From NCBI RefSeq assembly GCF_003334315.1, contig NZ_QOWR01000132.1: a DNA stretch of 462 nucleotides. One strand, 5' to 3'. The stretch comes from Escherichia coli. GTDB taxonomy: Bacteria; Pseudomonadota; Gammaproteobacteria; Enterobacterales; Enterobacteriaceae. The notes beneath the pieces were generated by a model. It was not told the origin of the DNA. It worked only from the letters and a program-made list of their open reading frames with translations, and did no database searches. Each line of letters opens with the position of its first letter. Position 1 is the stretch's first letter. Position numbers and translations under genes: made by a program. Of the stretch, positions 1 to 462 are shown piece after piece.

Positions 1-462
1 GTGCAGCTTATTCTCCACGTGCCAGTGGTTTCGGATTGCTGTGGCGAACTTCTCTGCGGTTAAATCAGCAGAACTGATATAATATCTGACCGTCATTTCG
101 AGCTCTTTCTTTTGTTCTGCTATTATGGACCGAAAGGAGACTGCCACGCATAATTTCTTCAGCCCTTTCCATTCAAACGTGAAATCAATAAGTTCATCAG
201 GGACATCGCAAACAATATGAAGACGGATTTCTTCTCTGCCGTGACTCTTTTCACTCATTGCGTAACTGTCATGCGCTGGATTATTTAATTCTTTCAGCGG
301 AAATTTTTCCTCAAAGGCTTTATTTAGCCGCCCCTGGTTTCCTTTTACCGCGAATAAATAATCACCTCCCTGTTTTTGTATCTTCTCTGCAATATCTTTC
401 TGGCAACCCATCGCATCAGTTGTGATGATTTTTCCTTTAATATCCAGCATGTTAAGAAGTTC
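1..462 (-). CDS. ISAs1-family DDE transposase (H-repeat-associated protein), internal fragment; partial at both ends, roughly the central to C-proximal part of a ~375-aa protein
   Basis: Seen in sequence: minus-strand frame beginning at 462 is open for all 154 codons, while plus-strand frames 1 and 2 stop at 61-63 and 89-91. Recognition from memory, not a database search: motifs [46 protein letters not shown] and [12 protein letters not shown] match my recollection of enterobacterial H-repeat / ISEc1 transposases (Pfam DDE_Tnp_1-type domain). The N-terminal part of the protein would lie beyond position 462 and the last ~60 residues beyond position 1. Confidence 0.88.
1..462 (-). mobile_element. 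Internal portion of an ISAs1-family insertion sequence (ISEc1 / H-repeat-like); terminal inverted repeats and target-site duplication are not in the window
   Basis: The transposase ORF fills the entire window. GC of about 41.6% (192/462 by manual count) is typical of H-repeat elements and lower than the ~50% of enterobacterial chromosomes. An IS of ~1.2-1.3 kb would extend several hundred bp past the right edge and a shorter distance past the left edge. Confidence 0.75.

Follow-up and report, generated by a model that had tools for sequence, protein, structure and literature searches.

The ydcC H-repeat marks the distal edge of a strain-variable RhsE island in Escherichia coli

The window analysed here, a stretch of 462 nucleotides from Escherichia coli, is the middle of ydcC, the gene for the DDE transposase of an ISAs1-family H-repeat (ISEc1/ISEc5 type). 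We consider it very probable that this ydcC H-repeat forms the distal boundary of a K-12-like RhsE island and that its low GC content comes from an old element of non-core origin. The identity of the gene, the limits of the element, its deviation in GC content, the content of the island and its variability among strains were all observed directly. The locus itself is already known and has long been described, the element being H-rptE, that is ydcC (b1460) in the RhsE locus of K-12. Descriptions of the RhsE locus of K-12, with RhsE, ydcC, yncI and ydcD, go back to the 1990s.

By exact count the window holds 192 G+C among 462 bases (41.56%), which reproduces the figure of about 41.6% given in the initial annotation of this DNA, and sub-windows of 100 nt within it range from 37 to 47%. 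Six-frame translation revealed a frame that is open from end to end, so that the window is coding throughout on the minus strand; translation, NF033564, Pfam and the RefSeq annotation all place positions 1-462 as an internal coding segment of ydcC, residues 157-310 of 378 aa. The 154-aa product of the window matches NCBIfam NF033564, the ISAs1 transposase equivalog model, with an E-value of 7e-49 and 166.7 bits (cutoff 70) over model positions 129-280 of 314, and Pfam DDE_Tnp_1 matches it as well. For the full-length protein of 378 aa the NF033564 score rises to 416 bits against the same cutoff of 70, with PF13808 (DDE_Tnp_1_assoc) covering residues 9-94 (E 6e-33) and PF01609 (DDE_Tnp_1) residues 102-343 (E 2e-30). 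The RefSeq name of the gene is ydcC, "ISAs1-like element ISEc5 family transposase". Two codons of the window, both inside the DDE_Tnp_1 match, are candidates for the catalytic triad. Asp172 of YdcC (GAT, positions 415-417, minus strand, in the motif IITTDAMG) is a candidate second Asp, going by motif position only, and Glu306 (GAG, positions 13-15, minus strand, in the motif HWHVENKLH) is a candidate catalytic Glu, since its motif is similar to the RW-IEN type found in DDE transposases like those of IS4/IS5.

Among the matches listed, E. coli PD007 was alone in being 100% identical to the window, the next match being at 99.8%. PD007 has a 4.64-Mb chromosome with the local gene order of MG1655; it is a human milk isolate from India. 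MG1655 and many other strains are 99.8% identical to the window, and the sole difference from MG1655 lies at window position 19 (L001 20019, L001 being the locus around the window), where the window has G and MG1655 has A. The change is synonymous (His CAC vs CAT on the coding strand) and among the matches listed it is shared with PD007 only; it is also what sets the element apart from H-rptE of K-12. Otherwise the two are the same element: MG1655 ydcC is 99.9% identical over 1,291 bp, both are 1,291 bp long with an ORF of 378 aa and short, imperfect inverted repeats at their termini, and both close off an Rhs element on its downstream side.

ydcC is the single gene of the H-repeat, which spans L001 19784-21074 (1,291 bp), limits that recur as match ends in other genomes. 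This length agrees with the 1.2-1.4 kb or so expected of a compact ISAs1-family element. Its ends, CAGGG...CCCTG, are exact in all six full-length copies (L001, L002, L004, L006, L007 and L012), and in these six the terminal inverted repeat CAGGGcAAGAT / CAGGGaAAGAT (right end ATCTTtCCCTG) matches at 10 of 11 positions. We take the element to be the classical H-repeat, H-rptE of RhsE, which goes under the names ISEc1/ISEc5 of the ISAs1 family in ISfinder and RefSeq. Zhao and colleagues are said to have described a 1,291-bp H-rpt in 1993, and Hill likewise reportedly dealt with H-repeats in 1994. Matches to the element were found in 5,341 of 5,426 complete genomes, at a median of five places per genome, and a K-12-like chromosome has H-repeat copies at RhsB, RhsC and RhsE. 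In K-12, yhhI (H-rptB, RhsB) is 98.0% identical to ydcC at the nucleotide level and ybfL, ybfD and ybfQ (H-rptC1-3, RhsC) are 95-96% identical. These copies have the same ends and likewise come after an rhs gene with its tip and small downstream ORF and border directly on a core gene. At RhsB, yhhI is preceded by rhsB-yhhH and borders on yhhJ; at RhsC, ybfQ, ybfL and ybfD are preceded by rhsC-ybfB-orphan tip-ybfC and border on ybgA. They differ from ydcC in occupying other chromosomal sites, and the RhsC copies are pseudogenes or fragments.

The RhsE element corresponds to b1455-b1461 (PMC3032704, Table 6). Here it takes the form of a mosaic island, about 5.8 kb long and bounded by the core genes pptA and yncH, in which the order is rhsE 3' core fragment and tip, ydcD, the H-repeat remnant yncI, the ydcC H-repeat and pptA. 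yncO adjoins ydcD between yncI and rhsE, and past rhsE there is an AT-rich leader, followed by yncH and yncG. The rhsE fragment, a pseudogene, matches positions 734-1261 of 1261 of the NCBIfam model RHS_core with 1167 bits, a score below the full-length cutoff because only half of the gene (the 3' half) is there, and it also matches Rhs_assc_core and Pfam RHS and RHS_repeat. It carries the boundary motif PIQVIDPMGL, after which comes a C-terminal tip of about 150 aa (L001 22811-23320) that matches Pfam DUF6973 (E 6e-11), a domain of unknown function. H-repeats had initially been said to lie downstream of an rhs core and C-terminal tip, with Rhs core repeats and a PxxxxDPxGL motif as the features to look for nearby; the element indeed sits at the distal end of RhsE, next to a fragment with both the motif and the RHS_core match.

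Between the tip and the H-repeats, ydcD (L001 22342-22824, minus strand, 27% GC, assigned to the YdcD family by NCBIfam) overlaps the rhsE stop codon and is presumed to be an orphan immunity gene. The DUF6973 tip of RhsE is a putative toxin, and YdcD its putative neutraliser. The small annotated gene yncO (L001 22242-22427, plus strand) lies on the other strand and overlaps ydcD at its 3' end, where the locus is at its most AT-rich (27-32% GC); it matched no NCBIfam or PADLOC family. Directly beyond the ydcC element lies the second H-repeat, yncI (L001 21075-22276), a much older pseudogene that is frameshifted and has an internal stop. Over 622 aligned nt it shares 67.5% identity with the ydcC element. 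It has kept its far terminal repeat (TTTCATGATCTTGCCCTG), but some 60 nt are missing where it borders on that element. A repeat search returned only one informative inverted repeat, 18 nt long and 89% complementary, which pairs the outer end of the ydcC element with that of yncI. Short direct repeats at the locus were set aside as chance, or as paralogy between the two H-repeats. GC content changes from part to part of the island, with 57-65% in the Rhs core, 27-40% in the tip and ydcD, and 37-42% in the H-repeats.

The flanking DNA had been expected to be accessory. This holds for the inner flank, with yncI, ydcD and rhsE, but not for the outer flank, where pptA, yddH, nhoA, yddE and the narZ operon are ordinary core DNA of 50-56% GC; the element is therefore not enclosed by plain syntenic core on both sides, as its inner flank is accessory and strain-variable. 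The 38 features annotated in the 20 kb to each side include no rfb/wzx/wzy or sugar-nucleotide genes, so that the suggested O-antigen neighbourhood does not apply to this copy; an H-repeat remnant is found at an O-antigen cluster junction in Salmonella (PMC3715488). Defence genes, also proposed for the flanks, did not turn up among the five island proteins searched: PADLOC (E<=0.01) gave no match for YdcD, YncH, YncO, YdcC or the RhsE tip, and an anti-phage defence island was rejected on this basis. A classical tRNA-linked genomic island was likewise rejected, with no tRNA genes in the 40-kb locus, no integrase annotated within 20 kb on either side and no Rfam families in L001 18500-27000.

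Synteny with related strains, which had been put forward as a check, shows that the locus varies and that some strains hold intact vgrG-rhs or PAAR-vgrG cargo. LR-17-1 has yncH, vgrG, a full-length rhs, dsORF-e4, an IS1 remnant, ydcC and pptA. EC28 and A42 have yncG, PAAR, vgrG, three hypothetical genes, a frameshifted ydcC, a GGDEF gene, a sulfatase gene and pptA. R6 has yddH, ydcC and ansP only, and Res13 a truncated H-repeat only. The DNA upstream of K-12 rhsE (L001 24842-25666) is identical to the DNA upstream of vgrG in LR-17-1 (L002 15376-16200; 100% over 825 nt), and K-12 rhsE is therefore a deletion derivative of a vgrG-rhs operon that has lost vgrG and the 5' half of rhs. LR-17-1 also has a solo 15-nt H-repeat terminal repeat (GATGATCTTTCCCTG; L002 8422-8436), 148 nt beyond the ydcC element and adjoining an IS1 fragment; it is the trace of a further, lost H-repeat.

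Several breakpoints fall at the H-repeats themselves. In EC28, the PAAR-vgrG cargo has at its proximal end an extra 155-nt remnant of an H-repeat right end (L012 17607-17761), oriented like ydcC, and A42 (L011) has the same structure. Together with the ydcC element this remnant means that the PAAR-vgrG cargo is bracketed by H-repeat sequence. At the spot of the proximal remnant, K-12 and LR-17-1 read ...CGCCCCACCCTG|ATAACATG. In R6 (L004 12727), a 263-bp deletion into pptA (aligned to L001 19521-19783) stops exactly at the H-repeat terminal CAGGG, and yncI, ydcD, rhsE, yncH and yncG are all missing, the remaining H-repeat being the only copy in R6-type genomes. The right flank of this lone H-repeat aligns with the proximal island boundary, the DNA just past the EC28 remnant, an arrangement that would be expected if recombination between two H-repeats had removed the island. 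Overall, the left end of the H-repeat at the ydcC locus abuts three sequences, namely the intergenic DNA upstream of pptA, the interior of pptA and the GGDEF gene. The breakpoints located exactly at H-repeat termini in different strains hint at past activity.

One reading is that ydcC has been domesticated for a host function at the edge of a T6SS/Rhs island, for example the exchange or deletion of toxin cargo, with its AT-richness incidental. Between K-12 and R6, ydcC has a dS of 0.115 and a dN of 0.012, which gives a dN/dS of 0.11 and falls within the range of the flanking core genes; R6-type genomes keep the ORF intact with no other H-repeat copy present, the same position at the distal end of RhsB, RhsC and RhsE recurs with the orientation of rhs, and the island of EC28 and A42 is bracketed by H-repeat sequence. 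However, ydcC is frameshifted in EC28 and A42 and truncated in Res13, yncI, ybfL, ybfD and ybfQ are pseudogenes, and purifying selection would also be expected of an IS kept by transposition or gene conversion. We know of no host phenotype of ydcC. A literature search on ydcC and ISAs1 returned papers on Aeromonas IS elements and nothing concerning the function of ydcC. We regard domestication as improbable. The same slight credence goes to a more specific reading, in which the H-repeat at the edge of the pptA-yncH island would be a retained module that drives the turnover of T6SS/Rhs effector cargo. It is compatible with the ORF being intact under purifying selection even as the sole copy in a genome, with deletions in several strains that end exactly at H-repeat termini, with a second H-repeat end that brackets PAAR-vgrG cargo in some strains, and with the lone copy of R6 having proximal-boundary sequence on its right, as after recombination between H-repeats.

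As to the age of the insertion, 2,889 of 5,426 complete genomes have an H-repeat end no more than about 0.6 kb from yddH (at least 53%, a figure for genomes positively counted at the yddH junction, the remaining genomes having other junction forms), and 2,374 of the 5,426 have the K-12-type junction. The GGDEF/H-repeat junction of the EC28 type was seen in only 12 genomes at >=80% coverage and adds little to this estimate. A concatenated flank query found no clean empty site among complete E. coli genomes, and the 10 genomes with the flanks within about 1.5 kb of each other all hold IS1, ISAs1 or VgrG remnants. In a tree of copies, the H-repeats did not group by chromosomal site, K-12 ydcC being 98.0% identical to K-12 yhhI but 96.2% to ydcC of R6; vertical inheritance is therefore inseparable from gene conversion or re-insertion, and the similarity of dS between ydcC and its flanks, initially taken as proof of vertical co-divergence, was reduced to being consistent with it. 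The initial annotation had called the element horizontally acquired. Its composition does look foreign, but the acquisition is not recent, since at least 2,889 of the 5,426 genomes share the site and no clean empty counterpart was found; we infer that the acquisition is old and the insertion ancient.

These data also bear on whether the H-repeat might instead be a recently acquired, active IS whose low GC content comes from a low-GC donor. The intact ORF with its complete two-domain architecture, the exact element ends in every copy, the left end that abuts three different sequences, which implies past events exactly at the terminus, and a few plasmid-borne copies all speak for it. Yet the same junction occurs in thousands of genomes of divergent lineages, the copies differ by 2-5%, similar to core genes, and relatives with >=80% amino-acid identity occur on just 20 of 72,556 plasmids. 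Direct target-site duplications are a property of the ISAs1 family according to ISfinder. None was present around any of the six full-length copies compared, which weakens a simple recent insertion but not membership of the family; they may have been erased by later rearrangements. H-repeats are associated with Rhs tips, and no transposition of them has been observed (PMC3032704). Any present-day activity of the H-repeat would be a candidate property, and we regard a recent active insertion as very improbable.

How far GC content contributes to the argument was judged against a background of 150 kb from three arbitrary places on the PD007 chromosome (L008-L010). Windows of 462 nt in this sample have a mean GC of 51.8% (sd 4.0), with 41.56% (z = -2.55) or less in just 1.6% of cases; under a binomial with p = 0.5175, the z-score of the window is -4.4. 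The window is thus an outlier in a host of about 51-52% GC in the sampled 150 kb, as had been claimed, and the host is far from having a GC of about 42% itself. The low-GC windows of the sample are clustered, each short run being about 0.5-1 kb long. Equally low GC is found in 8.8% of the 462-nt windows from the 34 kb surrounding the island, so that the signal from 462 bases is real but moderate. A second low-GC patch at L001 6172-9230, 11-14 kb from the window, raises this local background of AT-rich windows; it covers two pseudogenes, that of the porin gene yddL and a frameshifted one with leucine-rich repeats, and has the look of a further accessory segment in decay. For the whole 1,291-bp H-repeat the deviation is decisive, since at 40.5% GC it is below every 1,291-nt window of the 150-kb sample (z = -3.8), and GC3 is 42% in ydcC vs 52-59% in six flanking core genes. 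Low GC alone is no proof of foreign origin, as 1.6-9% of same-size host windows are equally low, and the GC of 462 bases is insufficient on its own; it is gene identity and context that carry the argument. Ordinary local variation, of the kind seen in DNA that is weakly expressed or bound by H-NS, would fit these frequencies of equally AT-rich windows, and the low GC would then have no bearing on foreign origin; but this is scarcely credible for a window that is fully coding with a GC3 well below that of its neighbours, in an element lower than every window of its size sampled, multicopy, with inverted repeats and a transposase, and embedded in a strain-variable island.

We thus return to the ydcC H-repeat as the distal boundary of the island. 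It would be an element of non-core-genome origin whose composition has not drifted toward that of its E. coli host, and its low GC content (window 41.6%, whole element 40.5%, GC3 42%) may be read as a mark of foreign origin, which we infer to be its cause. The site is occupied in most lineages, with the ORF usually intact and under purifying selection, and the neighbouring cargo has undergone repeated swapping, truncation or deletion, with several breakpoints exactly at H-repeat termini. The H-repeat would now serve mainly as a landmark and as a substrate for recombination and deletion.

The element has relatives beyond the H-repeats. ISAs1 of Aeromonas salmonicida, ISKpn31 and ISAs12 belong to the same family by the NCBIfam equivalog model and by Pfam architecture. 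However, they share only about 48-50% amino-acid identity with it and often reside on conjugative plasmids, whereas elements of the H-repeat type are nearly all chromosomal. The neighbourhood is itself one of the vgrG-linked Rhs effector islands associated with type VI secretion (PMC2935791), intact in LR-17-1 and decayed in K-12, although the window belongs to an IS at the edge of the island and not to rhs. According to Jackson et al. (2009, PMC2935791), Rhs effector islands become diverse through C-terminal displacement; that paper makes no mention of H-repeats.

To conclude, we have placed a 462-nt stretch of AT-rich DNA within a transposase gene at the edge of an RhsE island. Beyond correct annotation this matters very little. 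The combination of a composition cue and the recognition of an H-repeat transposase did, however, correctly predict an adjoining Rhs/T6SS effector island, and it makes a useful heuristic for scanning genomes. For the biology of E. coli, the point is that a transposase gene, to all appearances immobile, has remained intact at effector-island edges across the lineages of the species.
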